The notes beneath the pieces were generated by a model. The model was not told the origin of the DNA. It did no database searches and was given only the letters and a program-made list of their open reading frames with translations. From positions 1 to 64,000 of IMG/VR virus record IMGVR_UViG_3300022752_000035: 64,000 nt of DNA; one strand, written 5' to 3'. Positions 46,616-64,000 of this stretch are shown here, piece by piece. The stretch's first letter is position 1; every line of letters starts with the position of its first letter. The position numbers were made by a program, and so were the translations under genes. The DNA is from a virus.

Positions 46616-47404
46616 ATGGAAGAATCAATTTCAATTAATAGTTCAGAACTTAATAAAATTACTTCAATCACAGATAATAGCCTTATGAATGAATCAAAAG
46701 TCGTACCACCAAAGCTCTTTATAAGAAATAATTATGGTTTATTAGAAAATGATAATATTAATTATGTATTTAATGATGATGGATCTATTAATTGGAGAGC
46801 TATGGTTAAAAGTCAATATCTTGTACCTAATCGTCAAAGGACACAAGAAACAGATGTATCTAAATTAGAAGATAAAGATTTGCTTATTCTTCTTGGCGGT
46901 ATTAAAGAGCTCGCTCAAATCAGAGGTTTTACAAGCGTTGAATATAATGTAGTTACAGCAACAGATAATTATTTTGCTACATCTTGTAGAATTACTTGGA
47001 TTCCAAATTACGAAACAGAAAATCGCCCAGTTGTATTTGAAGCGCTTGCAGATGCTTCTCTAGTCAATACTAAAGATTTTGCTCGTTATTTTTTAGCAGC
47101 GATTGCAGAGAATAGAGCTTTTGTTCGTTGTGTACGTAATTTCCTAAAAATTAACATTGTATCACAAGAAGAGCTAGGTGATGCAAAGTTGGGTCTTGTA
47201 GCCAAAGAAGATGCTGAAAAAGAAAATCCAATGAATCCCACTGTTTTATTGGAGAGAATTATGCAAGAAAAAAATATTTCTTTTGAAATTCTAAAGAAAA
47301 AACTTATTAAAGAAAAATTTGATGGTGCAGATAGTTTCAATTCAATAAAAGATGTTCCAAAAAGTAAAGTTTTTGAATTGATAGAGAGACTTAAAAAAAT
47401 CTAA
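46616..47404 (+). CDS. Putative single-strand annealing protein (Rad52/RecT-like fold)
   Basis: ILLGGIKELA, AIAENRAFVRCVRNFLKINIVSQEELG; promoter TTGACA-N17-TATGAT ends 6 nt before the ATG. Confidence 0.55.
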   Translation: MEESISINSSELNKITSITDNSLMNESKVVPPKLFIRNNYGLLENDNINYVFNDDGSINWRAMVKSQYLVPNRQRTQETDVSKLEDKDLLILLGGIKELAQIRGFTSVEYNVVTATDNYFATSCRITWIPNYETENRPVVFEALADASLVNTKDFARYFLAAIAENRAFVRCVRNFLKINIVSQEELGDAKLGLVAKEDAEKENPMNPTVLLERIMQEKNISFEILKKKLIKEKFDGADSFNSIKDVPKSKVFELIERLKKI

Positions 47405-50400
47405 GTTTTAACACATAAAACTCCGCCACTTAACCAAACTCCTCCTTTCGGAATAAATGAATTCGTTGTTGGAAGTTTTGTCAAATCAAAAACTATTGGT
47501 GAATGATTTGGATCTTGACCAGTTATATAAATTCCATTAGCAAAATTCAAAAACAATGTATTTTCTTGAGATATGTTTTTTACTCCAGTTGAAGCATCAC
47601 TTAATACAATTGACCCAGAATTTTTAATGGTTATATTTTTTCCTAGAGCATTACTATAAGAACCACTGATTAAATTATTTGTTCCACCTAAAACGTTAGA
47701 GTATGTACCAGATACTATATTTAAACTGCCACCAAGAATAGAAGAAAAAGAATCGCTATAAATGTTATTATTATTGACGATTAAATTACCTGATCCTCCT
47801 ACGATATTAGTATATTGTAAATTTCCAGTTACTAGATTATTACTTCCCCCTAATACTGTACAAAATGCACTTTTTGGATATTGGTCATTAGGATTAAAAA
47901 TATCTATAATTTTATTTGATCGTCCACCAGGAATTAAATTAAAATCTCCTATGATAGTATTATTAACTCCTCCAGCTATACTAGATACAAGACCTTTGAT
48001 ATAGTTTCCAGTTCCACCACCTATAGTGGAACTTCCAATATCACTGAATCCAAAAGCGCCTAATCTTGCATAATTGAATGTACTTAATACAGATTTAGCA
48101 ATGTTTAAATCTTTTTCCAAATCAGAAGCTATATATTCATATATTAAACCAGTCATTTGGTTCACAGATAATGGAGCAGATAAACTAAAAGAAAATCCAT
48201 CGTTTCCTGTATTGCTAATATTATGCAAATATATTTCGTCTAAAGATGAATAAGCTCTTCCAAAAATTTTTGGAGAAAGATTAAATTTATCAATAAATTT
48301 AATATTTATATCTCCAGTAAATGATGCACTATTATCAATTAATATATTTTGTTGGACATCAAAAAGACCAGATCCAGTATTAGAAAATATTATATAGTTA
48401 ATTTTTATTCTATCTCCTGTAGCAATATTGTCTGATAATTGTATATTTAATCCAGTTTGATAAATATTTTTCAACCTTTGCAAATAAATATTATCATTAT
48501 TTATATTTTCTATAGACAAAAAGACTTTTGGTGAATCATAATTTAAATAATTATTAAAATTTATATTTAATTCATTATTTAAAAACCCCGTGTATGTCAA
48601 AGAATTAACATTTATCTTGGTGTTATCTATATTAAATTCTCCAGTTCTATATATAGAGACATTAACTTGCGCATCTTGATCAATAGGTCTAGAAGTATGG
48701 AAATAAAAACCTGTTGAACTTTTTCCTGAAATAAAATGAGAGTAAATATTTTTAGAAGAATTTCCACTTTGAATAATATTACATAATGGCGCATATCCAG
48801 TATCCAAAATGCCAGATAATAAATTTATATAAAGAAGATTTTCTCCAGATTTTAATCCTGTTTGATAAACTTGTATATTTTCTCCAGAGTATTTCCCAGT
48901 AAATCCTAAAGAATTGATATTTATATAATGATTGTTGTCTTTTAACTCTGCGCTTAAAGTCAACCTTAAATCTGAAGTATTACCAGATATAGCTCCCAGA
49001 GGAAACCAATTTATATTATTATCGTATATATTAAAAAAGTTAATTCCTTTTCTTTCCAAAGGAATATCATATCTATACCCTGTTCCAGTAATTAATTTTT
49101 GGAAAGGATATACTTTATTAATTTCTAAATGTACTCCATCATTCAATTCTGCACCAGTAAAAAATCCTTTAATTCCAACGAAATAATCAAGCAAAACATT
49201 TTCTTCTAAAACATTTGGAAAATCTATATAAAACCCAGTTCTATTTAATCCACTTATGTTTATAGATTTATAAACTCCATTATTTCCAATTAGATTAGGC
49301 ATGATTATTAATTCGTTTGAATTAACAAAAGGTTGAGTAAAATTAATTTTATAAGTTTTTGATCCTAAATTTAATCCAGTTCTTTCCGTTTTAAATTCGC
49401 AGACACTATTTCCCGTTCCTATAAATGATCCAGAATAAAGATTGGGAGATAGAAGACTGATCCAATTATATATCTTTATTTTATTATCGTTATTAATATT
49501 TGGATATACATCTAAAACATAATCAATTGTAGTGATATCAGAAATTTTATCTACTTTATAAATATTATTATTACTTTCTATATTAGTAAGAATCGCTAGT
49601 TCATCTGTAAATAATTGAGATGGATATTCTATTAAATATATATCAGCTTCATTATTAATATTTTTAATAAACATTTGATTCGCTATAGATGAAAGACCAG
49701 TTGAAGTTGCATCAATTGTATTTCCAAATCCCCCAACTATATTACAAAAAGACCCTAATAATGTATTGTTTTCTCCACCGCCAATCGTTGAATTATCACT
49801 AAAAAAAGATTTTACTGTAGAAATTACATTATTTTTTCCAGCGATAATACTAGATCTTCTTGATCCACTGATCAAATTATTTGTTCCAAATATAAATACA
49901 TTGTCAGTTTTTTTATCTATTTTATTATTTATTCCTAAAGCTACAGAAGAATCAGCCTCAACAATATTATTTGCATTTTTTATATTTTTAGAAGTAGTTA
50001 CTACTCCAGATAAAGGCCCCAAAATATCTAAACCTTGACCATCAAACTTAATATATCCGTCTTCATTGCCAACTCTAAATTTTGGTTTATTAAAATTATA
50101 TCTATTATCATAACCTAAATAAAATCCACTGCCTTCATCAACATTTTTGTCATTTACAGTTTTAATATAGCCACTTAATATACCTTCTTGGCCTATATTT
50201 AAAGCGTTGGTTATATTTGATTCTTCAGCTAATAATATCTGAGTTGCGGTTGCAGCAAATTCATTAGTGAATGGTATCCAATTTGGATTTCCAGCTTGAG
50301 GCTCAGAGTCTATATTAGTATAAGCTGCATACCAATGATTGACTCCTTCTCTTGAATATTTTACAACATCTCTTCTTAAATTACTTCCCACATATCCTAT

Positions 50401-52875
50401 TCCATATTTCCAAGGCCCTCTATAAGTAATTCCTGGCCCGCTTAACGATCTTCCAGAATATCCTACAGCAAGATTAAGTATCATTCCTTCGTTAGGTCTT
50501 TCACCATCTAAAGCTCTTATCTTTAAATAATAGATTCCTCCAACTAATGGTTGACCAAATATTTGATTTGCACTATTTAAATATGTTTCTAAACCCGTTG
50601 GCCAGTCACCTTCGCCCACACCAGAAATAGTTGTTGGAGAAAATTCAAATCTTGTAGCTCTAGAATTAGTTTGTATTTGATAAAAAAATGCATTTTCTAA
50701 AGGAGTACTAACATATCCAGGACTTGTAAATATATCTGAATTTGGAGGTCTAAATCCACTTATTGCAGAAACTTTAACATTTTTATTTTTTGTGATAAGC
50801 TCATTTTCGTATCCAATTCCAGTATCATAATAATTATTAAATAAAAATAATTCTCCTTTGCCAGTAATATCTCCTCCAAGTTTAGCTTCAAAAACAGTAT
50901 ATCCACCTGTATTATTTCCACCAATTCCATTGGTTCCTGTGATTTGCGTTAAATTTTTATTAACTATTTCTAATGGAAAATTTTTTATCTCTTTATATCC
51001 TAAAAGATTTTGAGTACCAGAATAACCGCTGAAATATATTAAATTTGCATTAGAAGCATTGATTCCAGATATTCTAATATAACCTAAATTATTATATAAT
51101 GTATTAGAGGATGAGCAATCATAAATAGTAGGCAAAATATCAATAGACTTATTAGAAGGTAATATATAACTTTCATCAAAACGATTTCTTTTAATTTTAA
51201 TTCTAGCTTGAGGATTTCTCACTTCTCTTGGGACTTTAAATCTTATACCAGTTGCAGAATTACTTATTTTAATTCCACTTATTAAATAATCATTTGGTGC
51301 ATCAACATTTCCAGTTATACCTAAGAAAAATACTTCAGAATCAGTTAAATTACCATAATCTCCAGAAGTTCCACTAGAACTATAAATTTCCATTTCATCT
51401 AAATATTTAGCGGCTTGTATTCCAGATAAATATCTTATATTAATGTTATTTTCTGATAGTCTTACTGTAGATACTAAAAGATTGTTTGTAGAAGGAGATT
51501 TAATTAAAATACCAGAATTTGGAAAATCAACAGAAAATATTTGAAGTGAAGTTGTTGTATAAGCATTTGGTAATACAAATGATGCTCTATCTGCAGCAGA
51601 ATTTATTGTGATATCTTTTTTCAAAACATTTGGTTGACCAAGATTAATATAATTTATACGCTGTAAATATTTTCCACTTATCGTTATTAATGCTCCAGTA
51701 CCCGCAAGAACATCATTTGGAGAAAAACCACTAGCAATTAAAGGAGGATAAAAAACATTTAAAATATTTTTAGTTTTATCTGAGCCATATTTACCAGAAA
51801 CAGTGATATAATCTGATGAACTATAATTAGGTATATCAAAATATAATCCTGTATTTTCTATTAGAGAATAATTAGAAATGCTTTGATCTCCAATTTTTAA
51901 ATCAGTAAAAAATGATAAATTATCTCCAGTTAAAACGATTTGAGTTGATTCTATTAATCCTGTCGTTGGATAAAAACCATAAATATTGGGGTAACCAGAG
52001 ATATAAAAATTATCAAATTTTGTTCCACTATTAATCCCCCTAAATTTTAAATTTTCTATAATTCCACTTTGATTTCTTCTTATATTATAAGGAACTTGGA
52101 ACTCTATAAATTGTAAAGATCCAGTATTTTCATATTTTTCATAAAGGAAATTTATTAGACCATTTTTTCCATTTCCTATATTTGGGATAAATTCTACCCC
52201 AGTCGTTTGATTAGGCACTGTAAAAATTCCAGAATTAGTTATATCAAAACTGCCTAAAGATCCATTAATTCCAGTTGTAGATACTGTTAGTATGGCGTAT
52301 GAATTAGTATCATATTTTTTAAATCCTTGTAAATAAAATGTATCGCCTATATTATAACCAGATCCATAATTTTGAATATTTCCTCCAGTAACTCTATATA
52401 ATCCTGTTTCTATAAAAGATGGATTTACTTTATTTCCACTATTATCTATAAAAGATAGATTTGCTCCTGGATTTAAATTATATCCAGAAATTTTAACGTA
52501 CTCTCCTGGTAGAACATTTTTATTATCAAAACCACTTATGATTGGCTGATCTAAAATATTTAGATTAATGTAATTTGATGAAACACTTGCGTCATTATAA
52601 ACGTAAACTTTATATTTAGATGGAGTAATTCCAGATATGGTGAAACCAACTAAATTATCTCCTAAAGTATTATTAATCCCAGAAATATTTTTATTATTTA
52701 ATCCATCAATAGAAAAATCATATGAAGAATTGTAAATATTTTGTCCAGAGATTTTTATTATGTTTTTCTTAAATTGTTCTCCAGATATAAAAATAGTTTC
52801 TCCATTAATCGCTATAAATCCAGTAGGAGGAGAAATTACTGGTTGAGCAGATTGTATTGTAAATAACACGCTCAT
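47401..52875 (-). CDS. Large tail/fibre protein with IPT/TIG-like domains, carbohydrate-binding-like modules and GGxxN repeats
   Basis: 1824 aa; repeated P-x-I-x-GF-x-P...I-x-ISG-x-x-L units; IGGGENN and IAGGVNN trimeric-fibre repeats. Confidence 0.7.
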   Translation of the reverse strand: MSVLFTIQSAQPVISPPTGFIAINGETIFISGEQFKKNIIKISGQNIYNSSYDFSIDGLNNKNISGINNTLGDNLVGFTISGITPSKYKVYVYNDASVSSNYINLNILDQPIISGFDNKNVLPGEYVKISGYNLNPGANLSFIDNSGNKVNPSFIETGLYRVTGGNIQNYGSGYNIGDTFYLQGFKKYDTNSYAILTVSTTGINGSLGSFDITNSGIFTVPNQTTGVEFIPNIGNGKNGLINFLYEKYENTGSLQFIEFQVPYNIRRNQSGIIENLKFRGINSGTKFDNFYISGYPNIYGFYPTTGLIESTQIVLTGDNLSFFTDLKIGDQSISNYSLIENTGLYFDIPNYSSSDYITVSGKYGSDKTKNILNVFYPPLIASGFSPNDVLAGTGALITISGKYLQRINYINLGQPNVLKKDITINSAADRASFVLPNAYTTTSLQIFSVDFPNSGILIKSPSTNNLLVSTVRLSENNINIRYLSGIQAAKYLDEMEIYSSSGTSGDYGNLTDSEVFFLGITGNVDAPNDYLISGIKISNSATGIRFKVPREVRNPQARIKIKRNRFDESYILPSNKSIDILPTIYDCSSSNTLYNNLGYIRISGINASNANLIYFSGYSGTQNLLGYKEIKNFPLEIVNKNLTQITGTNGIGGNNTGGYTVFEAKLGGDITGKGELFLFNNYYDTGIGYENELITKNKNVKVSAISGFRPPNSDIFTSPGYVSTPLENAFFYQIQTNSRATRFEFSPTTISGVGEGDWPTGLETYLNSANQIFGQPLVGGIYYLKIRALDGERPNEGMILNLAVGYSGRSLSGPGITYRGPWKYGIGYVGSNLRRDVVKYSREGVNHWYAAYTNIDSEPQAGNPNWIPFTNEFAATATQILLAEESNITNALNIGQEGILSGYIKTVNDKNVDEGSGFYLGYDNRYNFNKPKFRVGNEDGYIKFDGQGLDILGPLSGVVTTSKNIKNANNIVEADSSVALGINNKIDKKTDNVFIFGTNNLISGSRRSSIIAGKNNVISTVKSFFSDNSTIGGGENNTLLGSFCNIVGGFGNTIDATSTGLSSIANQMFIKNINNEADIYLIEYPSQLFTDELAILTNIESNNNIYKVDKISDITTIDYVLDVYPNINNDNKIKIYNWISLLSPNLYSGSFIGTGNSVCEFKTERTGLNLGSKTYKINFTQPFVNSNELIIMPNLIGNNGVYKSINISGLNRTGFYIDFPNVLEENVLLDYFVGIKGFFTGAELNDGVHLEINKVYPFQKLITGTGYRYDIPLERKGINFFNIYDNNINWFPLGAISGNTSDLRLTLSAELKDNNHYININSLGFTGKYSGENIQVYQTGLKSGENLLYINLLSGILDTGYAPLCNIIQSGNSSKNIYSHFISGKSSTGFYFHTSRPIDQDAQVNVSIYRTGEFNIDNTKINVNSLTYTGFLNNELNINFNNYLNYDSPKVFLSIENINNDNIYLQRLKNIYQTGLNIQLSDNIATGDRIKINYIIFSNTGSGLFDVQQNILIDNSASFTGDINIKFIDKFNLSPKIFGRAYSSLDEIYLHNISNTGNDGFSFSLSAPLSVNQMTGLIYEYIASDLEKDLNIAKSVLSTFNYARLGAFGFSDIGSSTIGGGTGNYIKGLVSSIAGGVNNTIIGDFNLIPGGRSNKIIDIFNPNDQYPKSAFCTVLGGSNNLVTGNLQYTNIVGGSGNLIVNNNNIYSDSFSSILGGSLNIVSGTYSNVLGGTNNLISGSYSNALGKNITIKNSGSIVLSDASTGVKNISQENTLFLNFANGIYITGQDPNHSPIVFDLTKLPTTNSFIPKGGVWLSGGVLCVKT

Positions 52876-54581
52876 TCAAATAATCCTCCATCTTCAGTCA
52901 TCATCTGTATAGTGTATCTTCCAGTAGGTATGTTACTCAATGGAATATACCCGCTTAATAAATTTTTATTGATAATTCTAAATGAAGTTTGAAAGGTGCT
53001 TTTATTTTCTTGATAAATATTGTCAGAATATCTAAATTTAACAAAACAACTATCATATTGATAAGGACTATCAATTAATATTGGTTTTTTAAAGCTTTTA
53101 CCTTGAATCATTATATTACTGCCTCGATATCCACTATTAGGTAATACTGCCAAAGGCATTGGAGTTTCAGAAAACGCGCTAATAGAAGTTTTCGATATCC
53201 CTGTTTGATTTATTAATATTACATTACCATTAATATAATATTCAGAATTTGGTATTTTAAATGACATACTATTTTTATCTTTAATTATTACGTCTTCTAA
53301 CGGAAGCCTTTCTTGAAATGTGTTTGCATTGCCTGTTAACAAATAAATTTTTTTGTAATAGGAATTTTTTCCATTATAAATGAATGTAGATAAATCTGTG
53401 CCAGTGTTATCTATCGTGAAGTAATTTAAACGGAAGGATTTATTATTAGCAGCATTTGGAATCGCTATATCGAAAGAATTTTTTTGCAGATTATATATAT
53501 TCGTTGCGGAAAAAGTTGTGCCTATATCTACATTATTAATTTTTTCAATGCTAGTAAATAGAAATGGTGGATATAGATTATTATCTACGCGATTTATAGG
53601 ATCAAAATAAATTGTTTGACTCGAATAATTTGGATCTATATCAACATAACTTCTTTTAAAAAATCCAGAGTCAAAAATAAATCCACTAGAATTGATTAGT
53701 AATACGTTTAAATTTGTAGCATATCCAAAAGCATTTTCAATAGTCAAATCAAATGATCCCGTAGTTTTATTACTTATATAGCTATCATCATGATCTGCTC
53801 CGCTTTGCACAATATTATAAAAAATAGCATAATCTGTATTATTTAATTTTCTAGGAAGGTCTATAGTATAATTTAAATAACCTGATTGTAACGGAGTTGT
53901 AAAAGCTTGAAATTCATCATTAAGTACGCCTGATGACATAGAGAGTAAATGATTTTCATAATATTTTTGTAGTAAATTACCAGGAATATCATATTTTATT
54001 TGGATAGATTTTCCACTGCTATAATTAAAATCATTTATATTTAAAAGTTTATAATCTTCGATCTCTGCTCTTAAATTAATATTTTGCACTAAATTTATAT
54101 CTCCCACGCCAGTCTTTGTTGACATTGGAATATTAAAAGTATTTTTTTCTCCGCTAAAATAATAATTAATATCATCTAATATAGGTGTCGCTAAAATATA
54201 TCCACTAACTATAGAAGTTAATACTTTTCCACTTAAATTAATGATAGATCCCTCTGATCCATTTTTCGGGTCAAAATCTTGAATTGTAAAAATTGGTAAA
54301 AATGGTAAATTATTTTGGCCAGTAATTTCAAAGCTATCTGACGATATGACTAATTTACCAGTATTTGGATCTGATGGCACAATAAATTCCATTTTTTGAG
54401 TTCCATTCACGAGCGCAAAATTTATTTTTTCTCCAGCGAAAAAAAGATTATCAACATAATCCAAATCTTCACCATAAATTGAAACGACCTGCCCTAACAT
54501 TCCAACTGGACTAGACGTAGAAGTAATCTTAGGATTAGGAGGAATATACTTGAAAAGTCCTGTTGATGTAATAAGTCCCAT
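52872..54581 (-). CDS. Tail-associated protein with IPT/TIG domains
   Basis: PKITS...GQVVSIYGEDL; IQDFDPKNGSEGSIINLSG; PNSGYRGSNIMIQGKSF. Confidence 0.65.
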   Translation of the reverse strand: MGLITSTGLFKYIPPNPKITSTSSPVGMLGQVVSIYGEDLDYVDNLFFAGEKINFALVNGTQKMEFIVPSDPNTGKLVISSDSFEITGQNNLPFLPIFTIQDFDPKNGSEGSIINLSGKVLTSIVSGYILATPILDDINYYFSGEKNTFNIPMSTKTGVGDINLVQNINLRAEIEDYKLLNINDFNYSSGKSIQIKYDIPGNLLQKYYENHLLSMSSGVLNDEFQAFTTPLQSGYLNYTIDLPRKLNNTDYAIFYNIVQSGADHDDSYISNKTTGSFDLTIENAFGYATNLNVLLINSSGFIFDSGFFKRSYVDIDPNYSSQTIYFDPINRVDNNLYPPFLFTSIEKINNVDIGTTFSATNIYNLQKNSFDIAIPNAANNKSFRLNYFTIDNTGTDLSTFIYNGKNSYYKKIYLLTGNANTFQERLPLEDVIIKDKNSMSFKIPNSEYYINGNVILINQTGISKTSISAFSETPMPLAVLPNSGYRGSNIMIQGKSFKKPILIDSPYQYDSCFVKFRYSDNIYQENKSTFQTSFRIINKNLLSGYIPLSNIPTGRYTIQMMTEDGGLFE

Positions 54582-54586
54582 ATGCT

Positions 54587-55558
54587 TTATGCTAAAGTTA
54601 GCATCCTTATTTGTTGATTTGTTATATTCTTAACTCTAGGAACAACAGCAGTGATTGTATTTCTATTATTTATTACAAAACTATCAGCTTCATATTCTCC
54701 AAAAAATACTTGAGCCACATAATTAAAGTTAGTACCATTTATTTTAATTTTATCTTTATAGCGACCAGATGTAGGAGTAAAATCAGTTATAGTAGCTTCT
54801 TCAATAACATTAAACTGTCTAATAGTCAACTCGTTAGTCAAGAATTCTTCAGATTTTGCTTGAAAAGTTTTTTTAGTTAAAAATCCAGTCACGCCATATC
54901 CTTGAGTTATAAGAGATGTTCCAAAAGGCGCAGTACCTAACACAACTCCAACTCGTGATCCAGAGATTTCTAATAATGGATTTAAATTATCACAAGTTAT
55001 ATTTAAAGTAGTCTCCTTTAATCCAAAAACTCCTCTTCTTTCATAAGTATCACCAATATACATTTCTGGTCTTATATCAGTAGAATAACTGTAATTAGCG
55101 TTTAAATAGGAGCCAGTTAAATTTTGATTATTAAAATTACTAATGCTAATTTCATTAACATGTACAATAGATTCTGAGTAATCTGCATTATCATATACTG
55201 GAGAAAAAGATCCAGTAGGAGATCTAAAAAATAAAATCTCTGTTGTACAGACTATCGGATTATGCGGTGCAAATCTAGCGTTAAAACTTTTTATATAACC
55301 AGTTTGTTGAATTCCACCAAAATCAAATTTTACGCCATCATCTAAATACAATAAATTTTTAATTGGATCTTGTCCAGTATAATAATAACTAAAACTGAGT
55401 GATCCTTGAATGGTATTATCTGGTCTAACATCTTCAGCATGTCTTTGTCCAAGTTCTATGTATGGACTAATTTGAGCCTCATATGACATTTGAGCCTCAG
55501 TAGCAATAATCAATTGATTATTTATTTTTAAACTTACATTTTTTCCATTATAAAACAT
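54587..55558 (-). CDS. Tail-tube-like protein with C-terminal IPT/TIG domain
   Basis: Two internal repeats (YEAQISPYIELG / YSTDIRPEMYIG); ITDFTPTSGRYKDKIKINGTNF. Confidence 0.5.
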   Translation of the reverse strand: MFYNGKNVSLKINNQLIIATEAQMSYEAQISPYIELGQRHAEDVRPDNTIQGSLSFSYYYTGQDPIKNLLYLDDGVKFDFGGIQQTGYIKSFNARFAPHNPIVCTTEILFFRSPTGSFSPVYDNADYSESIVHVNEISISNFNNQNLTGSYLNANYSYSTDIRPEMYIGDTYERRGVFGLKETTLNITCDNLNPLLEISGSRVGVVLGTAPFGTSLITQGYGVTGFLTKKTFQAKSEEFLTNELTIRQFNVIEEATITDFTPTSGRYKDKIKINGTNFNYVAQVFFGEYEADSFVINNRNTITAVVPRVKNITNQQIRMLTLA

Positions 55559-55559
55559 A

Positions 55560-56390
55560 TTAATAATACTGTACTATTGTTTTTGTTGATCGAACAATAT
55601 CGTCTAAATTAGATTCAATAGTAGAGTTATTAATAAATGCATCTGGCATTTCTATAGTAAAGCTATTTGAATCTAAGAGTCCAGATATTTGAATTTTTAG
55701 AGGTATATTTTCTCCAGTATAAACTAATTTTGTAAATAAATTTTCCGTCATATTTATAGTTTCTTGAGCTCTAATTGGTTTTACTTCGATTGGAGTTTGT
55801 TGACCTAAAGCATAAATTGGTGTTAAATTACATGTGAATGTATAAGTTAAATTATACAAATCTCCAGTTAATTCACTTGCTGTACCTTTAGCAAATATAT
55901 TTCTACCAGAGACTAAATTAGTTTTAGAACTATGAGCAATACTATCTGCAGATGCATTGTTTGGATTAACTAAATCTCTAGGAGTTTGAAATAAAGTATT
56001 TGTTATAACTGGTTCATAAGTCACATAACTTACTTGAGCAGTAACAACGTTATTTGGTTCAATTTTAAAATTATAATTATTTAAATAGCATTTTTGACCA
56101 GTTACTCCTGCAAATCCTATTGTAACTCCATTATAATTACTTGGAGCAGAAATAAAATTTTTAATTTCTTTAACAGTAGTAAAAGCTGGGTCTCCAGTAG
56201 GATTAATTAAATATGAAATTTGAAAAGTACTAGAACTTGGACCCGTAGTAATCTGTTTTTTAAATGGCTTTCTTTTGCCTAAAGTATAAACTGGACCCAT
56301 AGTTATATCAGAATTAAAATTAGCAGAAATAGCCAAAACTCCAGTATTATTAATCTTTATCTCGCATTGATCGTAATATATTCTAGCCAT
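55560..56390 (-). CDS. Tail-tube-like protein (duplicated domain)
   Basis: FNSDITMGPVYTLGKRKP / FTCNLTPIYALGQQTP repeats; SD AGGAG and GTGTAA upstream. Confidence 0.5.
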   Translation of the reverse strand: MARIYYDQCEIKINNTGVLAISANFNSDITMGPVYTLGKRKPFKKQITTGPSSSTFQISYLINPTGDPAFTTVKEIKNFISAPSNYNGVTIGFAGVTGQKCYLNNYNFKIEPNNVVTAQVSYVTYEPVITNTLFQTPRDLVNPNNASADSIAHSSKTNLVSGRNIFAKGTASELTGDLYNLTYTFTCNLTPIYALGQQTPIEVKPIRAQETINMTENLFTKLVYTGENIPLKIQISGLLDSNSFTIEMPDAFINNSTIESNLDDIVRSTKTIVQYY

Positions 56391-56422
56391 ATTCCTTTCT
56401 CCTTTTACCTCTTTAAATTACA

Positions 56423-57229
56423 CTATCTTGATACAGTACTTTCATAAGTTAACTGCATTAGAGCGCTACCATCTACATCAGTATTGTAATCTTCTCGGGT
56501 TAATAAAGCGTCTGCGATATTAAAAGAATTAACAATATGAGATGAATTATTTTTCTTTAAATTAATATCAAAATTGTAAATATTTTGTTTTTGAGGATAA
56601 TCAAATAAACTTTTATTTTGGTAATCATGTAAAGATATAGAAAAACTTGTCGTTATAACAATTGGATACTGTAATTTAACATCTACAGGCTTAACAGATG
56701 TAGCATCAAAAATTGGCAATCTATTGCATTTTATATTAATATTTAAATTATTAATTTTTTCAGCTTCTAATTCATTAAAATTCAGCTCTATATCTCCAGG
56801 ATTTACAATATTTAACTTACTTTCTTCCATAATAAATGGTAGTTTTGGAGAAGATATATTACCAAAATCACTATAAAAATTCCATTTTGTAGTTAAAGTA
56901 GGTATAGTACCTACTCCACAAGAAAATTGATATTCGGCCATATATCCACTATTCATACCAAAAGTGTTATTATCGTACTGAATTTTAAAATTTACCCCAT
57001 TTTCGCCAGTATATTGAATAAACTGATCAGAATTTATAAATAAAGTCTCTAAATTTAATGCTCCTATAAATGCTCCTATAGGCGCTATATTTAAATGATT
57101 ATTATTTGAACCCAAATATTTAATATTTTCTATAGGCAAATCATAACTGGCTGAAATAGATTGAGCGCCTGTTATGGGCGTATCATTAATATAAATCCTA
57201 TTAAATTCTCTTGTAAATCTTGATAACAT
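56423..57229 (-). CDS. Tail-tube-like protein (duplicated domain)
   Basis: GAQSISASYDLPIENIKYLG / IKCNRLPIFDATSVKP repeats. Confidence 0.5.
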   Translation of the reverse strand: MLSRFTREFNRIYINDTPITGAQSISASYDLPIENIKYLGSNNNHLNIAPIGAFIGALNLETLFINSDQFIQYTGENGVNFKIQYDNNTFGMNSGYMAEYQFSCGVGTIPTLTTKWNFYSDFGNISSPKLPFIMEESKLNIVNPGDIELNFNELEAEKINNLNINIKCNRLPIFDATSVKPVDVKLQYPIVITTSFSISLHDYQNKSLFDYPQKQNIYNFDINLKKNNSSHIVNSFNIADALLTREDYNTDVDGSALMQLTYESTVSR

Positions 57230-57242
57230 ACCTTATGCCTTG

Positions 57243-57274
57243 TAATAATTACACCCCTTTAAGTGTAATTATTA
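57243..57274. promoter_or_regulatory. Back-to-back GTGTAATTATTA motifs at the divergence point of the tail operons
   Basis: TAATAATTACAC-ccctttaa-GTGTAATTATTA, a 12-bp inverted repeat. Confidence 0.7.
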
Positions 57275-57294
57275 ATATAAAAGGAGCAAGGTTT

Positions 57295-57771
57295 ATGCAA
57301 GGAGTATATGAAGAATTATATACATTTTTAGTGTCAAAGAATGTAGAGGAAACAAAATTGTATTGTTTTAAAGATTGGCTTACGTGGTATATTGATAATA
57401 ATCTTTATCACGTTCAAAGAAATGAAAATGGGCAGATAGAAAAAGTATTTTTTATTCGAAGGTTAAACTCTAATGATATCAGTGAATTTCCAGATTATAT
57501 TCATCCAGATCTTCCAAATATAGATAAAATTACAAAATATTACCTGCATAGGCCTGAAGGAAACGTCTTTTATGGAGAATTATTAATTGATGATAAAAAC
57601 AATGATGATTTAAAAGTAGAAAATTTAAATTTTGCTTTTACTTGGGCTATTAACAAGTTCAATCCACCCATCATTGATCCATCATATATACTTTTATATT
57701 ATAAAAAAGGCCACAAAGTTAAGATGAATATGAAAGATATAGAAGATATTATTTCAAGATACAGAGGATAA
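57295..57771 (+). CDS. Hypothetical protein (start reassigned to ATG 57295), weak acyltransferase-like pattern
   Basis: SD AAGGAG upstream of MQGVYEE; YHVQRNENGQI...EGNVFYGELLID. Confidence 0.55.
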   Translation: MQGVYEELYTFLVSKNVEETKLYCFKDWLTWYIDNNLYHVQRNENGQIEKVFFIRRLNSNDISEFPDYIHPDLPNIDKITKYYLHRPEGNVFYGELLIDDKNNDDLKVENLNFAFTWAINKFNPPIIDPSYILLYYKKGHKVKMNMKDIEDIISRYRG

Positions 57772-57776
57772 AACAT

Positions 57777-58373
57777 ATGGGAATGGGCACTCCAAATATT
57801 TCAAGGTCTTTTGGCTCCGAAGATACTGGATCTATAAATGACGGAATGATTACATGGGCAAATAAATCTTTAGGATATAATTTTTTAAAAAATGATATAA
57901 TTAAATATAAAGGAGATTTTTGGTATTGCATTAAAGACCATTTTAAAAATGTAGAAAGTGAACCAGGTACAAACTCAGGTAATACATATTGGGGAGGAGT
58001 AATAGTCCTTTCAAATAATATGTTAATTACAAAATTTATCTGGACACCTTCTTATACATCTGCTATTCAACATAAACCAAGCGTTACAACAATTAGATTT
58101 GGTAATGGATATGAGCAAAGAATTTCTAAAACCATTAATCCTGATTTAAAAACGTTACAATTAAATTTTGATCAAAGAAATTCAAGAGAAGCTAGAGCAA
58201 TTATACATTTTTTAAAACAAAGAGCTGGCGTTCAAGCTTTCGCTTATAATCCAGGAGATATTTATTCTGAACAGAGTTATAGAACAAAATATGTTTGTAG
58301 AGAATGGGAAACTAATTTTACATTTAAAGAAAATTATTCTGTCCGTGCAAAATTTGAAGAAGTTTCTGCTTGA
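57777..58373 (+). CDS. Lambda gpM-like minor (distal) tail protein with N-terminal carbohydrate-binding-like module
   Basis: IRFGNGYEQR, LQLNF...IIHFLKQRAGVQAFAYNP, RAKFEEV. Confidence 0.85.
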   Translation: MGMGTPNISRSFGSEDTGSINDGMITWANKSLGYNFLKNDIIKYKGDFWYCIKDHFKNVESEPGTNSGNTYWGGVIVLSNNMLITKFIWTPSYTSAIQHKPSVTTIRFGNGYEQRISKTINPDLKTLQLNFDQRNSREARAIIHFLKQRAGVQAFAYNPGDIYSEQSYRTKYVCREWETNFTFKENYSVRAKFEEVSA

Positions 58374-58394
58374 TGAAAGAAATGGAGAAATAAT

Positions 58395-60701
58395 ATGGGA
58401 ATGGGAGAAGTGCCTAATCAAGCTATGCAAGCAAGTGAATATTTTTTGCAAGCGCTTGAGGCTCAAAGATCAATCAATTCGCATATTCATGAGATAGAAC
58501 CAACAACGCCAGTATTTTTATATGAAATTGATTTAAATGAGATTAAACCTGCAACTATTTCTTATCCAAACAGAAATGGGCCCGTTAAAGATGGGGTGAT
58601 AAGAATACATAATGATTTTAATCTTTTTAATATTAATCGAGGAATTATAAAATGGAAAGGTAATCTTTATTTTCCATTTCCTGTTTATGGTGAACAATTT
58701 GATATAACTTCGAATGGCACAATTCCAACTCCTAAAGTTAAATTTTCTAGTCAATTTTTAGATGATGAATTTAATTCATTCTATAAATATATAAGAATGC
58801 AAATTCAAGAACTAAAAGATATTGTAGGTTCTAAAGTCACAAGAAGAAAAACATTTGTTAGATATTTAAGCCCAGATAATTTTCCCGCAGGAGTAAATCC
58901 TTTTAATACTTTTACAGATACTCCATGGGCATCAAGAGATGGAGAAGCGCTTACTGTAAGATCGTTAGAAAGAGTACCAATTGATTTTGCAAAATGGTTA
59001 GTTTATACTATCAAATCTATACAAAGTTCAAATAAAATTTTCACATGTCTTCGTACAGACGATAGATTAAAAACTTTAAATATTAATTTACAAAAACAAA
59101 TCTATAACTTAAATTCTTTAGATTTTTTTAACTTATTTATTAATGATGATATTAATTTAAGTCCAGACGTATTAGACGCATTTTCTTCTGATATTTTTAT
59201 TATTCAATCTAATAATACTTATACAAATATTATTCCTGTCGCTCAAAATGAATTTAAAAAAATAAATACAAATACACCAATTAAGGTTTTATGTTATTAT
59301 AGCTTAAGGAATTTCAGTAATACAAGTAGTGCTTTAATAAATTATCCTGTTACTTTTTCTGAATCTAGCTCTGAATTAATGACGCTTCTTTCTTTTAGAT
59401 CAATAAATGAAACTATTGCAGAAAAATTTAATTATTCTATATCTACCCAAACCTCAACAAGTTTTACTACTCTATTTTCAAAATCTTTAAATGGTAATTT
59501 TGATATTAATTATCTAACAATTCCAACGGGTGTTTATACTGGAGTGAATCCATATTCAAATGAAGATGCAAAATTTATTGGATTAAAACTAAATCCAAAT
59601 TTTGGTTCTGCTACGTCTGGAGAGTATGATATCGTTTTTCCAGTAACATTTTCGAATGTACCAAAAATATTATTTAATAGTTGGGGAAGTGCAGGGTTCT
59701 TATATGATCAATATTTAAAAAATATTACTTCTACAGGATGTACATTTGTAGCAACTCATACAGGAAACAATGCTCAATTACAGACTCAAAATATTAATTT
59801 AATTGCAACAGATTACATAACAGACCAACTTACGCCACCAAATAATACTCAAATATATACAGCGTATCAAAATATGGCAAAGAATAATTTAAACGAAATA
59901 AATCAAAAAAGAATTGATATTTATGAAGTGGAATTAACTCCAGATATATACTATATTGATAGAAAAGTGCAAGAAGATTCTCAAAATGTTATTTATGAAT
60001 TAGCTTCATTACTTGATGTCGAAGGAGTAAAATTACCAGGAAGAATTTTATTATCTAAAAATTGTCCATTTACTTATCGTGGCGAAGGATGTTTGTATGA
60101 ACGATATGATAGATTAACTGTAGTTCATTCTGGGGTGTATGGAGGGATTGGCTCGGTAATTAATGCAAATTCTACAGCAAATTCAAATGGTATATCAAAA
60201 TCTAACTTATCTTTTTCTCAGCAATGTCATGGTCTTCAATCTGCCCCGCCTGTTGCAAACGCTTCGGATAATTCATTTTCTCAATATAGGCAAGGAGATT
60301 GGAGAGATCGAGGAACATGGCAACAAGGTATAACTTATTATTATGGAAATTATATATATATAGAAAAAAATTATATAAAATATTATTTTGTGTGCAAACA
60401 ACAGCACACAGCCGATTTAATTAATTGTCCACCAAATTCTCAATTCTGGGAGTCTGATACGTGTTCAAAAACTTTAGTTGGTTGTAGAGCTAGATGGAGA
60501 AATAATCCAAATTTTACTAAAAATTTATTATCTGTTAATCATGTTTTTGGTAATAATCAAATTGTTGATCCTTTATTGAAAATAGAAGTAAGTGCTCCCA
60601 AAGATGTTAATGGTACTCAATTAATGGGTGTTTTACCTTTTGGTGGATTCCCATCTGTAGAAGGAAAATTCCAATCTCAACAAAGTATGCCAGGAGTTTA
60701 A
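58395..60701 (+). CDS. Lambda gpL-like tail tip protein with large insertions
   Basis: LYEIDL, IKWKGNLYFPFPV, GSKVTRRKTFVRYL, YYIDRK, YELASLLD, CPFTYRGEGCLY, DTCSKTLVGCRAR, LPFGGFP. Confidence 0.9.
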   Translation: MGMGEVPNQAMQASEYFLQALEAQRSINSHIHEIEPTTPVFLYEIDLNEIKPATISYPNRNGPVKDGVIRIHNDFNLFNINRGIIKWKGNLYFPFPVYGEQFDITSNGTIPTPKVKFSSQFLDDEFNSFYKYIRMQIQELKDIVGSKVTRRKTFVRYLSPDNFPAGVNPFNTFTDTPWASRDGEALTVRSLERVPIDFAKWLVYTIKSIQSSNKIFTCLRTDDRLKTLNINLQKQIYNLNSLDFFNLFINDDINLSPDVLDAFSSDIFIIQSNNTYTNIIPVAQNEFKKINTNTPIKVLCYYSLRNFSNTSSALINYPVTFSESSSELMTLLSFRSINETIAEKFNYSISTQTSTSFTTLFSKSLNGNFDINYLTIPTGVYTGVNPYSNEDAKFIGLKLNPNFGSATSGEYDIVFPVTFSNVPKILFNSWGSAGFLYDQYLKNITSTGCTFVATHTGNNAQLQTQNINLIATDYITDQLTPPNNTQIYTAYQNMAKNNLNEINQKRIDIYEVELTPDIYYIDRKVQEDSQNVIYELASLLDVEGVKLPGRILLSKNCPFTYRGEGCLYERYDRLTVVHSGVYGGIGSVINANSTANSNGISKSNLSFSQQCHGLQSAPPVANASDNSFSQYRQGDWRDRGTWQQGITYYYGNYIYIEKNYIKYYFVCKQQHTADLINCPPNSQFWESDTCSKTLVGCRARWRNNPNFTKNLLSVNHVFGNNQIVDPLLKIEVSAPKDVNGTQLMGVLPFGGFPSVEGKFQSQQSMPGV

Positions 60702-60702
60702 T

Positions 60703-61449
60703 ATGGAATTTAATTCTCAAATTAAAAATTATATTAAAAATCTAGCTGTCAAAAAATTAGAAGAAGAAGTTTGTGGGTTTATATATTTCGATGAAAAAAA
60801 TTATAAATTTGAAATTTATCCATGTAAAAATAGAGCAGAAAATAAAAAAGATAATTTTACAATATCTCCACAAGACTATTTAAATTGCTCAAATTTAGGT
60901 AAAATTATAGCTTGTTATCATTCTCATATAAATGAAAATATTGAATTTAGTGAGATAGATAAAAATAATAGTAATATTTATAATATACATTATATACTAT
61001 ATAATATTAAATATGATATTTTTAATATTTATACTCCAAATAAAGAAAATAATCCATATGTTGGAAGACCTTTTATACTTGGCAAATCTGATTGTTTTAC
61101 ATTAATGCAAGAATATGCATGGAAAGAAAAGAAAGTCAAAATTGAATTTCCAAAAGAATTAATTTACCCAAGATATTTAGAAGATATCAAGGATTTATAT
61201 GAAAATAACTTTAAAAATCAAGGTTTTTTGAAATTAGATAAAAACGTTAAACTTCAAAAATTTGATGGTCTTATGATGCTTTTCCCAGCTATTTCAGATA
61301 AATTTCCAACACATGCCGCAGTTTATATAGGAGATGGCCTTATTTTGCATCAACCATTTAATTCTTTTTCTTGTGTAAATATATATGATAACTTTTTAAA
61401 AAAACATACTAGCTATGTTTTAAGGTATAAGGAGCTTATTAATGGTTAA
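60703..61449 (+). CDS. Lambda gpK-like tail assembly protein (JAB/MPN plus NlpC/P60)
   Basis: EEVCG...YHSH...SEID (JAB); YVGRPFILGKSDCF...HAAVYIGDGLILHQ (NlpC/P60). Confidence 0.92.
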   Translation: MEFNSQIKNYIKNLAVKKLEEEVCGFIYFDEKNYKFEIYPCKNRAENKKDNFTISPQDYLNCSNLGKIIACYHSHINENIEFSEIDKNNSNIYNIHYILYNIKYDIFNIYTPNKENNPYVGRPFILGKSDCFTLMQEYAWKEKKVKIEFPKELIYPRYLEDIKDLYENNFKNQGFLKLDKNVKLQKFDGLMMLFPAISDKFPTHAAVYIGDGLILHQPFNSFSCVNIYDNFLKKHTSYVLRYKELING

Positions 61450-62752
61450 AGTAAAATTACATGGATTTTTAGGCCAAGAAATTGGAGAAGAATGGAATCT
61501 AAATGTCTCTAGCGTTGCAGAAGCATTTAGAGCTATAGAAGCAAATACAAAAAAATTAACTAAATTTTTTATTAATCAATCTGAGAAAAATGCAAAATAT
61601 GAAATATTAATTAATCATCGTCCTTTATGGGTACCAAAAGCAGAAGAAATGCCAACAGATTACAAAGATGTAAATAAAAAACATTTTGCAAAATTATATG
61701 AATCCGAAATGTTTATGAATTTTGGTTCAGAGTTAAAAACTATAGATATTATACCAATATTAGAAGGAGCTGGTGGTGGAGGGGGTGCGGCTGGAGGATG
61801 TTTTCCAGCTGGAACAAAAATATCTACTCCACAAGGAATTAAAAATATTGAAGATCTTAAAGAAGGCGATGAAATTTTATCTTTTGATAAAGAGAAAAAT
61901 ATACAAATAGATATGATAGAAAAAGTCTTTGAACATGAAAATAATAAAATTTTAAAAATTACGTTATGGGATGGTTCAATAATAAGAGCTACAGGAAATC
62001 ACTGGTTTTTTAATGAATATAATAGATTTACTCCTTTAGAAAATTTTAAAATTGGAGATGTCTTAATACATAAAAGTGGCGACGTTATGCCAATTGAAAA
62101 AATAGAAGAAGATGGAAATGAAAAAGTCTATAATTTTCATGTTTTAAAAAATCATACATATATAGCTGATAATATTTTAGTGCATAATGGAGGAGGAGGA
62201 AAAGGAGGAGGTGGAGGAAAAGGTGGTGGTGGAGGAGGATTTAAAAGTATTTTTGCTGTATTTTTAGCTATTATTTTAGCTCCAGTTACAGGAGGCGGCT
62301 CTCTTGGTATATTAGGGATGTTAGCTCCTGCAATTTTAGGATTAGTAGCTCTTGGAGTATCAATGTTATTAATGAAGCCGCCACCAATGGTAAGTCCTCA
62401 ACAAATAGCGAATCCTTCAGCGGATTTTGAAGCTTCTCCAGATTCTGGAGGAGGAGAACCATCTTATACATTTAATGGTCCAGTCAATACAGTAGGTGAA
62501 GGTGGACCAGTACCAATTGGTTATGGAAGATTAATTATAGGAAGTCAACAGATTTTTAGTTCATACGATCAATTATATCGTATACAATCAAGAAGTAATA
62601 CATATGAAAGCGATGGTAAAGCGCCAATAGGCGCAGGAGCAGGGGAAAAAAACTATCCAACAAAAAGTTTTTATTTTACTCATGTTGGTTATCCAATAAA
62701 CATTCAAGATGTCCAAGGAAATTCAATGTCAGATAGCTCATTATCAATTTAA
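61442..62752 (+). CDS. Lambda gpI-like tail assembly protein with inserted Hint domain
   Basis: VKLHGFLG...SVAEAFRAI...IDIIPILEGAG (ubiquitin-like domain), hydrophobic helices, SYTFNGPVNTVGEGGPVPIGYGRLIIGS. Confidence 0.9.
   Translation: MVKVKLHGFLGQEIGEEWNLNVSSVAEAFRAIEANTKKLTKFFINQSEKNAKYEILINHRPLWVPKAEEMPTDYKDVNKKHFAKLYESEMFMNFGSELKTIDIIPILEGAGGGGGAAGGCFPAGTKISTPQGIKNIEDLKEGDEILSFDKEKNIQIDMIEKVFEHENNKILKITLWDGSIIRATGNHWFFNEYNRFTPLENFKIGDVLIHKSGDVMPIEKIEEDGNEKVYNFHVLKNHTYIADNILVHNGGGGKGGGGGKGGGGGGFKSIFAVFLAIILAPVTGGGSLGILGMLAPAILGLVALGVSMLLMKPPPMVSPQQIANPSADFEASPDSGGGEPSYTFNGPVNTVGEGGPVPIGYGRLIIGSQQIFSSYDQLYRIQSRSNTYESDGKAPIGAGAGEKNYPTKSFYFTHVGYPINIQDVQGNSMSDSSLSI
61799..62188 (+). other. 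Hint (mini-intein / bacterial intein-like) domain, 130 aa, no endonuclease
   Basis: Block A CFPAGTKISTP...IEDLKEGD, block B ATGNH, block F KVYNFHV, block G LVHN followed by Gly. Confidence 0.9.
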
Positions 62753-62755
62753 TTT

Positions 62756-64000
62756 ATGCCAAAAAAATGTAAAGATTGTGATCCAAATAAATATATCGAA
62801 GGGATAGCCTGGAGAGGAAAAAATGGCATTTCTTATGATGGTTATACTATATATAATGATGTTGGGAAACCGCTTGCATCAGATTCAACATTGGCAGATG
62901 TAAACGATTTAGTAGATGCTTATAATCCAATTTTTTCTCAAAGCACAACCTATCCAAATCCATTACCAGAGTCTCCCACGAATGGTGTAGAAATAACTGG
63001 TATAGATCGAGGCCAAGGGTTTTGGTTTGTATGGAGTTTTATAAATGGTTTAGTCATGTATGGTACGCCTGGAGTTGGAGTAAATGCTGCAAGTATAATT
63101 AGCTCAGGAACAGCTTCGGCAAGACTAGGTCAAGGCTTTTCTTTTAATGTACTTTTAGATCAAGTAGCCTCATATTTAACTTATACCGATTTTGGTGTCC
63201 TTGCAGACACAAATACAGATGATAGACTAAGATTTAGCAATACAAATAGTAATACAATACCATTTATCAAGACTAAAATTAATTATGTAGGATATTATAC
63301 TGGAATTATTCAGTCCGTCTTAAATGGAAATAGATATGTCAAAATAAATAATGTGACTCAATTAGAAACTTTTAAGGCTTATAAAAGTTTAACAATAAAA
63401 TGTACAGATGCAGAAGGCAATGACCCAATATATGTTACTAGTGCACCAACTATACATGTTTTTAAAAACCAAAGTTTTTCTTATTCTTTGACTACAAATT
63501 TAGCATCAAATAAATTTAATGCTTATTTAGATCAAAGTTCTTTAAATATTTTAGCAAATTTAGGACTAGCATGGAATCCTAGTTCTAAAACCATAACAGG
63601 AGTAGGTTCAACAAATTTAAGTTCAGAGATAAAAAATACAAATTTAAATTTTACTATTTATGGGCCAAATGCAGACGCAGGAAATAGAATAAGTTTTAGT
63701 TTAAATTTATTATATGGAGCACAAAATACTCAAACAGTATTACCAACGGTTAGCGCTACAACATTTAATCGAGTTGTAGGTACAAAATTTGAGCAAGGAT
63801 TAGCAGGCTTAAATAATAAGCATACAATTATAGGAATTTCTTCTTTACCAGAAGGATTAGTTTTTAATTCTACTAGTAAATCTATTACTGGAACACCAAA
63901 ACATGCGGGTACTTTTTATGCATATGCAAGCTGTTCTAATGCTAGAGGATCTAGCTCGAAAGTGACATTAACTTTTAATTTTAGTCCATATTCACTCAAT
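62756..64000 (+). CDS. Large tail protein with putative Ig (He_PIG-like) domains, truncated at the window edge; occupies the gpJ position
   Basis: Open frame from MPKKCKDCDP to the edge; SLPEGLVFNSTSKSITGTP...SNARGS Ig-like motif. Confidence 0.65.
   Translation, partial: MPKKCKDCDPNKYIEGIAWRGKNGISYDGYTIYNDVGKPLASDSTLADVNDLVDAYNPIFSQSTTYPNPLPESPTNGVEITGIDRGQGFWFVWSFINGLVMYGTPGVGVNAASIISSGTASARLGQGFSFNVLLDQVASYLTYTDFGVLADTNTDDRLRFSNTNSNTIPFIKTKINYVGYYTGIIQSVLNGNRYVKINNVTQLETFKAYKSLTIKCTDAEGNDPIYVTSAPTIHVFKNQSFSYSLTTNLASNKFNAYLDQSSLNILANLGLAWNPSSKTITGVGSTNLSSEIKNTNLNFTIYGPNADAGNRISFSLNLLYGAQNTQTVLPTVSATTFNRVVGTKFEQGLAGLNNKHTIIGISSLPEGLVFNSTSKSITGTPKHAGTFYAYASCSNARGSSSKVTLTFNFSPYSLN

Follow-up and report, generated by a model that had tools for sequence, protein, structure and literature searches.

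A type-A bacterial intein-like domain, probably self-removing, between the ubiquitin-like and structural parts of a phage tail assembly protein

In phage lambda, the tail-tip protein gpI carries an N-terminal ubiquitin-like domain (Ubl), and the cleavage of this domain by gpK was predicted as early as 2006 (PMC1779556). According to a conference report, gpK cuts the Ubl off the structural domain of gpI, but not before gpI has become part of the tip complex (PMC12908700). The lambda virion shows gpI from residue 101 on, with the N-terminal domain unseen; the visible part is a trimer inside the gpJ cone, comprising helices H1 and H2 and a plug (PMC11101478). Among Hint domains, the type-A bacterial intein-like domains (BILs) are distinguished by a missing nucleophile at position +1 (PMC7765530). 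Here we describe a gpI-like protein in which a Hint domain of this kind lies between the Ubl and the structural part. The protein is encoded in IMG/VR virus record IMGVR_UViG_3300022752_000035, of which positions 1 to 64,000 were analysed (64,000 nucleotides, hereafter the window). An earlier reading made from the letters of the DNA alone (the sequence-only reading) had drawn attention to this arrangement and had proposed either conjugation of the Ubl without an E1 enzyme or auto-processing in tail assembly. We find that the domain is a type-A BIL, and we consider that this 130-residue element probably removes itself from the gpI precursor, with or without re-joining its flanks, most likely in the course of tail maturation.

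The edges of the Hint domain are C120 and N249 (..AAGG/CFPAGT...ILVHN/GGGGKG.., with slashes at the junctions), and its motifs comprise Cys1, a block B of TGNH (T-G-N-H), a block F of VYNF..NHTY and the terminal pair H248-N249. The PT-HINT family (PF07591) matches residues 127-249 with an E value of 4.6e-11 and 43.6 bits, against a cutoff of 27.7, and the Pfam Intein_splicing model remains under its own cutoff (31.5 vs 35.8). The AlphaFold2 (AF2) model exceeds a predicted local distance difference test score (pLDDT) of 90 over residues 120-250. Among solved structures, the C. thermocellum BIL 2LWY is the closest in sequence (E 1.2e-12), with the gp41-1 mini-intein next (E 4e-10). Foldseek also ranks 2LWY first (template modelling score, TM, 0.87; root-mean-square deviation 1.7), followed by Tetrahymena BUBL1 BIL2 (TM 0.78) and gp41-1 (TM 0.90). 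Neither an endonuclease nor a remnant of one is present in the 130 residues, and no Cys, Ser or Thr occurs within the first 19 residues after N249. By its fold, its family profile, Cys1 and the block-B T..H, the terminal HN and the +1 residue, the domain is a type-A BIL. The sequence-only reading had described a complete 130-residue Hint with Cys1, TxxH and HN behind a gpI Ubl, followed by a +1 Gly and devoid of a homing endonuclease, and had set it apart from canonical homing inteins; it was right in all of these respects.

The same signature extends to the relatives of the domain. Against 1.84 billion representative proteins, 9,587 relatives were found at E <=1e-3, and the residues of the subfamily were counted in the 291 full Hint copies contained in the best 149 of them (~284 copies for the +1 residue). 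Nearly all copies start with Cys (290/291) and end with HN (277/291). The most abundant +1 residue is Lys (178), followed by Gly (37), Ala (23) and Arg (9); Cys, Ser or Thr occupies this position in 16 of the ~284. A Hint subfamily without the canonical +1 nucleophile thus bears the hallmark of type-A BILs. Many metagenomic members (P0114-P0118, P0126, P0130, P0136 and others) are tandem arrays of 2 to 13 Hints, linked head-to-tail through ..VHN/K-G(1-5)/CF.. linkers with a +1 Lys; such arrays may form a lysine-directed or self-dismantling class of BIL. A further relative, P0235, is a BUBL-like poly-ubiquitin protein with three repeats of the form ..LRLRGA/C...HN/SMQIFVKTLT.. (E 2.7e-19, 34% identity).

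The protein that harbors the domain is a bona fide TAPI/gpI, as it combines a beta-grasp domain ending in a conserved Gly, a Gly-rich linker, a TAPI-C part and an M-L-K-I-J gene context. It is matched in two stretches by phrog_32 ("tail assembly protein"; whole-protein E 3.8e-24, best over residues 1-115) and over residues 296-371 by phrog_4554 ("tail protein"). In Pfam, PF06805 gave no match in this gpI and is recorded just for the distant homologues P0101 and P0104. Since Foldseek with the whole gpI model matched the Hint alone, the Ubl was folded separately. AF2 modelled it as a beta-grasp with a pLDDT of 90.6, as the sequence-only reading had supposed for the N-terminal domain, and nearly all of the Foldseek matches listed belong to the MoaD/ThiS/Urm1/SAMP/CysO/ubiquitin families, at weak scores (E 0.012-0.5, TM up to 0.71); the few exceptions among them are ubiquitin- or SUMO-bound complexes or uncharacterised proteins. 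In the C-terminal part, AF2 predicts helices at residues 276-282 and 287-310, and the TAPI-C part resembles the PDB entries 9L9P_A (E 1.1e-7), 25VF_9 (E 1.5e-5) and, weakly, lambda gpI itself (8IYK_I, E 0.075).

The alignment of homologues identifies G109 as the invariant terminal Gly of the gpI Ubl. The Hint had been described as following the Ubl directly. It is indeed located downstream of it, but not flush with it, as 10 Gly/Ala residues separate G109 from C120 (11-19 in relatives). On the other side of the Hint, the Gly/Lys linker opens with Gly at +1 and includes K254 (+5), K260 (+11) and K268 (+19).

Examination of the gpI homologues revealed the Hint at the same place in 28 clusters (51-90% identity). 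The -1 Gly, Cys1, the block-B T..H, the terminal HN and the +1 Gly are invariant in all 28, such that the alignment proposed in the sequence-only reading yields a constant insertion site, a constant +1 Gly and intact catalytic residues. Two types of Hint share this site, one of 130 residues (24 clusters) and one of 144 residues (4 clusters), and a linker Lys is fixed at +5 in every short-type cluster (24/24) and at +6 in every long-type cluster (4/4). Five further gpI clusters, with flanks that are 63-70% identical, contain no Hint and keep the Gly/Lys linker; more distant gpI proteins are likewise free of it. On a tree of the exteins, in which Hint types were assigned with hidden Markov model boundaries, the presence or absence of the Hint requires at least 3 changes, and the three states require 6. 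One gpI of the 144-residue type is sister to Hint-less gpI proteins (support 100/99). On the tree of the Hints themselves, the 130-residue gpI Hints join those of gpJ (93/95), and the 144-residue type falls outside. Independent origins of the two types at the gpI site are suggested rather than shown, since the approximately unbiased test fails to reject a single gpI Hint clade (p 0.12).

Within the 130-residue clade, the Hint shows a ratio of nonsynonymous to synonymous substitution rates (dN/dS) of 0.16, compared with 0.19 in the Ubl and 0.17 in the C-terminal part, with dS of ~1 in all three. The Hint and the gene that hosts it have diverged together in this clade, and purifying selection acts on the Hint as strongly as on its flanks. 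Because close relatives are without it and its presence has changed repeatedly on the extein tree, the Hint is dispensable across the family, and stably kept and presumably functional where present. The earlier description of a "domesticated" module is doubtful on the same grounds.

A second Hint occurs in the gpJ-like open reading frame (ORF) of the same record, between a 709-residue Ig-rich N-extension and the gpJ core. Its junctions read ..YRST/CFPAGT...FVHN/RGGGGRRK.., with Thr at -1 and Arg at +1. The gpJ junction was surveyed in 80 related IMG/VR loci. Each of the 13 distinct gpJ Hints begins with Cys1 and closes with HN; at +1 they have R, G, M or K, and none has C, S or T there. The N-extension and gpJ are found as two genes in loci L014 and L020 (in L014 the N-extension ORF ends in ..GDVYSCRYT and a stop codon, and gpJ starts 16 nt downstream), as a direct fusion without a Hint in, e.g., L006, L013, L016 and L033, and as a fusion via a Hint in the phage described here and in L007, L012, L021, L023-L031 and L036. 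In L055 and L037, which belong to phages less closely related, gpI is ordinary, and gpJ is composed of a Gly-ended leader of 10-19 residues, a Hint and the gpJ core (L055:10298-17113, L037:3149-5620). This layout is present in at least 23 representative clusters, some of them with two tandem Hints, and includes P0159, P0172, P0211, P0251, P0261 and others (leaders of 10-30 residues).

All four combinations of Hint presence in gpI and gpJ occur in the related loci. Together with the leader-Hint-gpJ proteins, which have no Ubl, these combinations indicate that the Hints are independent of a Ubl. The tie between Hint and Ubl on which the sequence-only reading was built is therefore not upheld: the short gpI Hints group with the gpJ Hints, some of which stand behind leaders of 10-19 residues. 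Both kinds of Hint lie in flexible, Gly-rich stretches, at borders where the two flanks can also exist as independent polypeptides. As further observations on the gpJ Hints, an I(I/V)GSKGG motif is found on both sides of the Hint in L055, and P0121, P0128 and P0201 bear two tandem Hints near the N-terminus. The gpJ motif follows in P0121 and P0201; none was detected after the tandem Hints of P0128.

The JAB peptidase gene adjacent to gpI had also been recognized beforehand, correctly so. The gpK-like protein shows matches to Prok-JAB (E 5.2e-6) and NlpC_P60 (E 2.3e-4) in Pfam and to phrog_30 (E 1.8e-53). Its JAMM residues (E22, H73, H75, S83 and D86) and the NlpC/P60 residues (C131, H204 and H216) show no variation among 35 homologues, all Hint-bearing loci included. 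When the JAB domain with Zn was modelled against the Ubl, the complex scored 0.84, compared to 0.25 for the best of 3 controls, and passed a mark that 58 of 80 solved complexes reach, against 2 of 110 mismatched pairs; as JAB-ubiquitin complexes have already been solved, the result may stem from resemblance to these and is no proof of binding. Agreement of contacts between runs is at least 91%, with a partner pLDDT of at least 84. In the model, residues 104-113 of the Ubl tail touch E22, H73, H75 and S83-D86. With the JAB residues conserved and the Ubl tail modelled in the active site, the normal JAB route of Ubl removal would still be available.

Building on the observed anatomy, conservation, family membership, distribution and selection, and taking the chemical steps and their timing from the chemistry of the family, we infer the following course of self-removal. 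Cys120, assisted by the block-B Thr and His, would perform an N-S acyl shift at G119-C120. Asn249, with His248, would cyclise and cut the N249-G250 bond, thereby releasing the structural part of gpI, which would then begin with Gly. The thioester would either be resolved by hydrolysis, which would release the Ubl with its linker, or be attacked by the freed G250 amine, which would re-join the Ubl to the C-terminal part of gpI. The gpK JAB domain would still bind the Ubl and cut near G109 in tail-tip assembly, as in lambda. The element may be tolerated at this site as the two flanks are due for separation anyway; with the gpI junction separable, and the gpJ junction variable in relatives, both would be permissive for an element that needs only self-excision. 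Splicing by amine attack (aminolysis) was reportedly proposed by Dassa in 2004 for the C. thermocellum BIL, the nearest solved homologue of the gpI Hint, which has a +1 Ala, and one A-type BIL is said to have spliced in that work. In contrast to that account, a review describes A-type BILs as able to cleave but not to ligate (PMC7765530).

Several considerations weigh against self-removal in this form. Cleavage, splicing and their timing in this gpI are predictions from the chemistry of the family. An early cut at both junctions, shortly after translation, would deprive the precursor of its Ubl ahead of assembly and make JAB catalysis superfluous; the joint conservation of the Ubl, Cys1 and the JAMM residues leans towards re-ligation, or towards a delayed, conditional cleavage, over simple early cleavage. 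The conserved Lys at +5 or +6 and the frequent +1 Lys of the subfamily hint at chemistry with an amine nucleophile, which self-removal would not need. Finally, lasting purifying selection and divergence in step with the host gene would be expected of a useful module no less than of a tolerated parasite.

In a different fate of the thioester, the Hint would hand the Ubl, together with its linker, to a Lys residue in cis or in trans, and the gpK JAB domain would reverse the linkage at the assembly checkpoint. We regard this as unlikely, although its consequences would be considerable: the virus would itself encode the conjugation of a ubiquitin-like protein without E1 or ATP, and the dominant +1 Lys of the subfamily would mark a class of lysine-directed "isopeptide-splicing" Hints.

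In the cis version, which we hold to be distinctly unlikely, the G119 thioester would be attacked by a linker Lys (K254 at +5, or K260), which, once the Asn has cyclised, would leave the Ubl isopeptide-linked to the C-terminal part of gpI. This self-made conjugate would later be removed at the assembly checkpoint by the gpK JAB domain, an isopeptidase by ancestry. Such a scheme explains why Cys1 is conserved along with the Ubl and with JAB catalysis, and it fits the Lys fixed in the linkers of both gpI Hint types, the HN/GGGGK that recurs after gpJ Hints, and the 178 copies of the subfamily with a +1 Lys. It also has a precedent in a close structural neighbour, as BUBL BIL2 makes Lys isopeptides (PMC8616854). 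However, the Gly/Lys linker is the same in the Hint-less relatives, so its lysines are not Hint-specific, and the gpJ Hints of the clade have no fixed Lys position, with none nearby in L036.

For the trans version, the thioester would pass the Ubl to an amine of a different protein, whether from the tail, elsewhere in the phage or the host, in the manner of a BUBL-like "ubiquitin dispenser". The parallel with BUBL that was drawn at the outset is a real one. The order of Ubl, Gly linker and BIL mirrors that of the ciliate proteins, and the BUBL-like P0235 ranks within the best 150 relatives of the phage Hint. Moreover, Tetrahymena BIL2, the second-best structural match, joins ubl4 to ubl5 and to Ras, forming Ubl-Lys isopeptides with no ATP (PMC8616854). 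Against this, the same Hint lineage is found in gpJ behind leaders of 10-19 residues or Ig-rich extensions, with no Ubl, and close relatives of this gpI manage without a Hint. The predicted Ubl-GG thioester is further weakened by the position of Cys1, 10 residues beyond the conserved terminal Gly, and conjugation as such by the conserved gpK JAB domain, modelled on the Ubl tail, through which the normal route of removal would remain. The gpI Ubl has, in addition, a known non-conjugating role in lambda (PMC12908700). A candidate acceptor was not found, and nothing in this analysis indicates a foreign target. E1-free conjugation of the Ubl is possible but unsupported, and we consider its trans form improbable. 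Of the two activities put forward by the sequence-only reading, auto-processing is the likely one.

It is more improbable still that the Hint is a catalytically dead spacer and that the gpK peptidases do all of the cutting. The adjoining gpK does keep two intact peptidase domains, with its JAB domain modelled on the Ubl tail. Yet Cys1, the block-B T/H and HN are invariant in 28/28 gpI clusters, Cys1 and HN are retained in 13/13 gpJ Hints, and the dN/dS of the Hint is 0.16; furthermore, a 130-residue domain left on the C-terminal part of gpI would have to fit into the tip lumen, the place of gpI in lambda (PMC11101478). A canonical selfish mini-intein with standard four-step splicing, to which the likeness to gp41-1 (E 4e-10, TM 0.90) and the patchy presence among alleles might point, is scarcely credible in view of the +1 Gly in 28/28 clusters with no C, S or T nearby (a +1 nucleophile is required for the transesterification of standard splicing), the Pfam intein model under its cutoff, and a site in a flexible poly-Gly linker rather than a conserved active site, with no endonuclease or remnant. 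Self-removal by a type-A BIL thus remains the reading that we favour.

The source record comprises 95,984 bp in IMG/VR and is ~63% complete according to CheckV; the window represents its first 64 kb and has a guanine-plus-cytosine content of ~28%. The window sequence occurs in metagenome runs of lake water and freshwater that stem from two studies; two of these runs may be the source sample, and there are no RNA runs among the sequencing runs listed as containing it. The gene content includes ribonucleotide reductase (RNR), DnaB, RecA, DNA polymerase III alpha and numerous glycosyltransferases. The lambda-like tail-tip block begins at 57777 on the plus strand, in the order M-L-K-I-J as assigned by Pfam and PHROG, and its features are compiled in Table 1.

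Table 1. Features of the tail-tip block, with the subdivision of the gpI-like protein (window positions unless stated otherwise)
Feature	Position	Strand	Basis
M-like protein	57777..58373	+	
L-like protein, 768 aa	58395..60701	+	
gpK-like protein, 248 aa: JAB/JAMM aa 1-118 and NlpC/P60 aa 119-248	60703..61449	+	Pfam, PHROG
gpI-like tail assembly protein carrying the Hint, 436 aa	61442..62752	+	
Ubl, MoaD/ThiS-type beta-grasp, aa 1-109, ending at invariant G109	61442..61768	+	phrog_32, AF2, Foldseek
Gly/Ala linker aa 110-119, AGGGGGAAGG, N-extein side of Hint	61769..61798	+	sequence
Hint / type-A BIL aa 120-249, 130 aa	61799..62188	+	PF07591, 2LWY, AF2
Gly/Lys linker aa 250-268, start of C-extein	62189..62245	+	sequence, cluster alignment
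Pair of hydrophobic helices, aa 269-311, equivalent to H1/H2 of lambda gpI	62246..62374	+	AF2
TAPI-C structural (plug) part aa 312-436 and stop codon	62375..62752	+	phrog_4554, PDB matches
gpJ-like ORF, 1824 aa, ending at genome position 68230	62756..64000 in window	+	PF13550 Phage-tail_3; He_PIG Ig domain
Second Hint, in gpJ-like ORF	genome 64883-65278, beyond window	+	50% identity to gpI Hint, E 2.9e-34

Within the gpL-like protein, the Phage_tail_L match is divided into two stretches by a large insert of several hundred residues, for which no family match was found. The tail-tip block (57220-64000, +) is divergent from a group of large minus-strand ORFs (47401-57229, -) of 1824, 569, 323, 276 and 268 residues, in which a TIG domain is the sole Pfam match. 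Elsewhere in the window, a 405-residue ORF (26890-28107, +) matches the catalytic domain of the RuBisCO large chain (PF00016, E 1.3e-34), and an 846-residue DNA polymerase III alpha-like protein (40349-42889, +) has Pfam matches that start at its NTPase domain, with no PHP-domain match among those listed.

Among 50,697 records of deposited phage genomes, none covers at least 80% of the Hint-bearing gpI, and the matches are confined to the Hint alone or to TAPI-C alone. One of them, in Ruminococcus phage NatCom_3870 (PV036417.1), aligns with residues 83-249 and was rejected as a gpI: it is an unrelated Hint with a +1 Ser and an HNH-like tail. In that locus (L001:4990-5873) the junctions are ..TTTMK/CFVAGT...ILVHN/SNC.., the tail is HNH/DNase-like, and the region is split into several coding sequences annotated as "hypothetical protein". 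In the literature, we found no report of a Hint in gpI or gpJ; neither Iyer 2006 nor the searched papers on the structure of the lambda tail mention Hints in TAPI, a search on Hint domains and tail fiber returned only the TerL/RNR inteins of phiCbK, one on BILs in phage tails yielded only reviews of toxins and inteins, and one on inteins in this tail assembly protein found no paper.

The present locus widens the known range of BILs, as Hints without a +1 nucleophile prove to be common in the tail-tip proteins of uncultured phages, among which the leader-Hint-gpJ layout is widespread. That a JAB protease removes the Ubl at a gpI/gpK checkpoint is a recent finding (PMC12908700). A self-processing Hint at the very junction of Ubl removal would be a natural test case for whether the covalent link between the Ubl and gpI, and its timed removal, matter. 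Being small, quick to fold, free of an endonuclease and bordered by Gly linkers, these Hints are also candidate tools for protein engineering.

In comparison with lambda, the locus shares the M-L-K-I-J order, the Ubl, Gly linker, hydrophobic helices and plug of gpI, and the JAB and NlpC/P60 domains of gpK, whereas lambda gpI, with 223 residues, contains no Hint. Phage mini-inteins such as gp41-1 (PDB 6QAZ) resemble the gpI Hint in size, in fold and in the Cys1...HN frame, but true inteins have a +1 Cys, Ser or Thr and are inserted in conserved sites of replication or packaging enzymes, neither of which applies to gpI. The similarity to type-A BILs of family PF07591, represented by 2LWY of C. 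thermocellum, extends to the Hint fold, Cys1, TxxH, a VYNF-type block F, HN, a non-nucleophilic +1 residue, a length of ~130-140 residues and the lack of an endonuclease. Classic type-A BILs, however, reside in variable secreted bacterial proteins or polymorphic toxins, whereas the gpI Hint is found in a conserved phage tail-tip protein, in a Gly linker at a known protease-processing junction. Unlike them, it also has a JAB protease acting on its N-extein encoded next door.

The ciliate BUBL proteins (BIL2, PDB 6Y75/6TMM; TM 0.78) likewise place a Ubl upstream of a BIL without canonical +1 chemistry. In BUBL, Cys1 directly follows the C-terminal residues of the Ubl and the acceptor is a downstream Ubl, conjugation having been shown for BIL2 only (PMC8616854). 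In gpI, by contrast, Cys1 and the terminal Gly of the Ubl are not neighbours, and the adjacency that defines BUBL, by which the thioester activates the Ubl C-terminus itself, is missing: a 10-residue linker intervenes between G109 and Cys1, TAPI-C lies downstream, and a dedicated JAB is present. Should the transfer of the Ubl to a lysine prove true, the gpI Hint would be the first prokaryotic-virus counterpart of ciliate BUBL.

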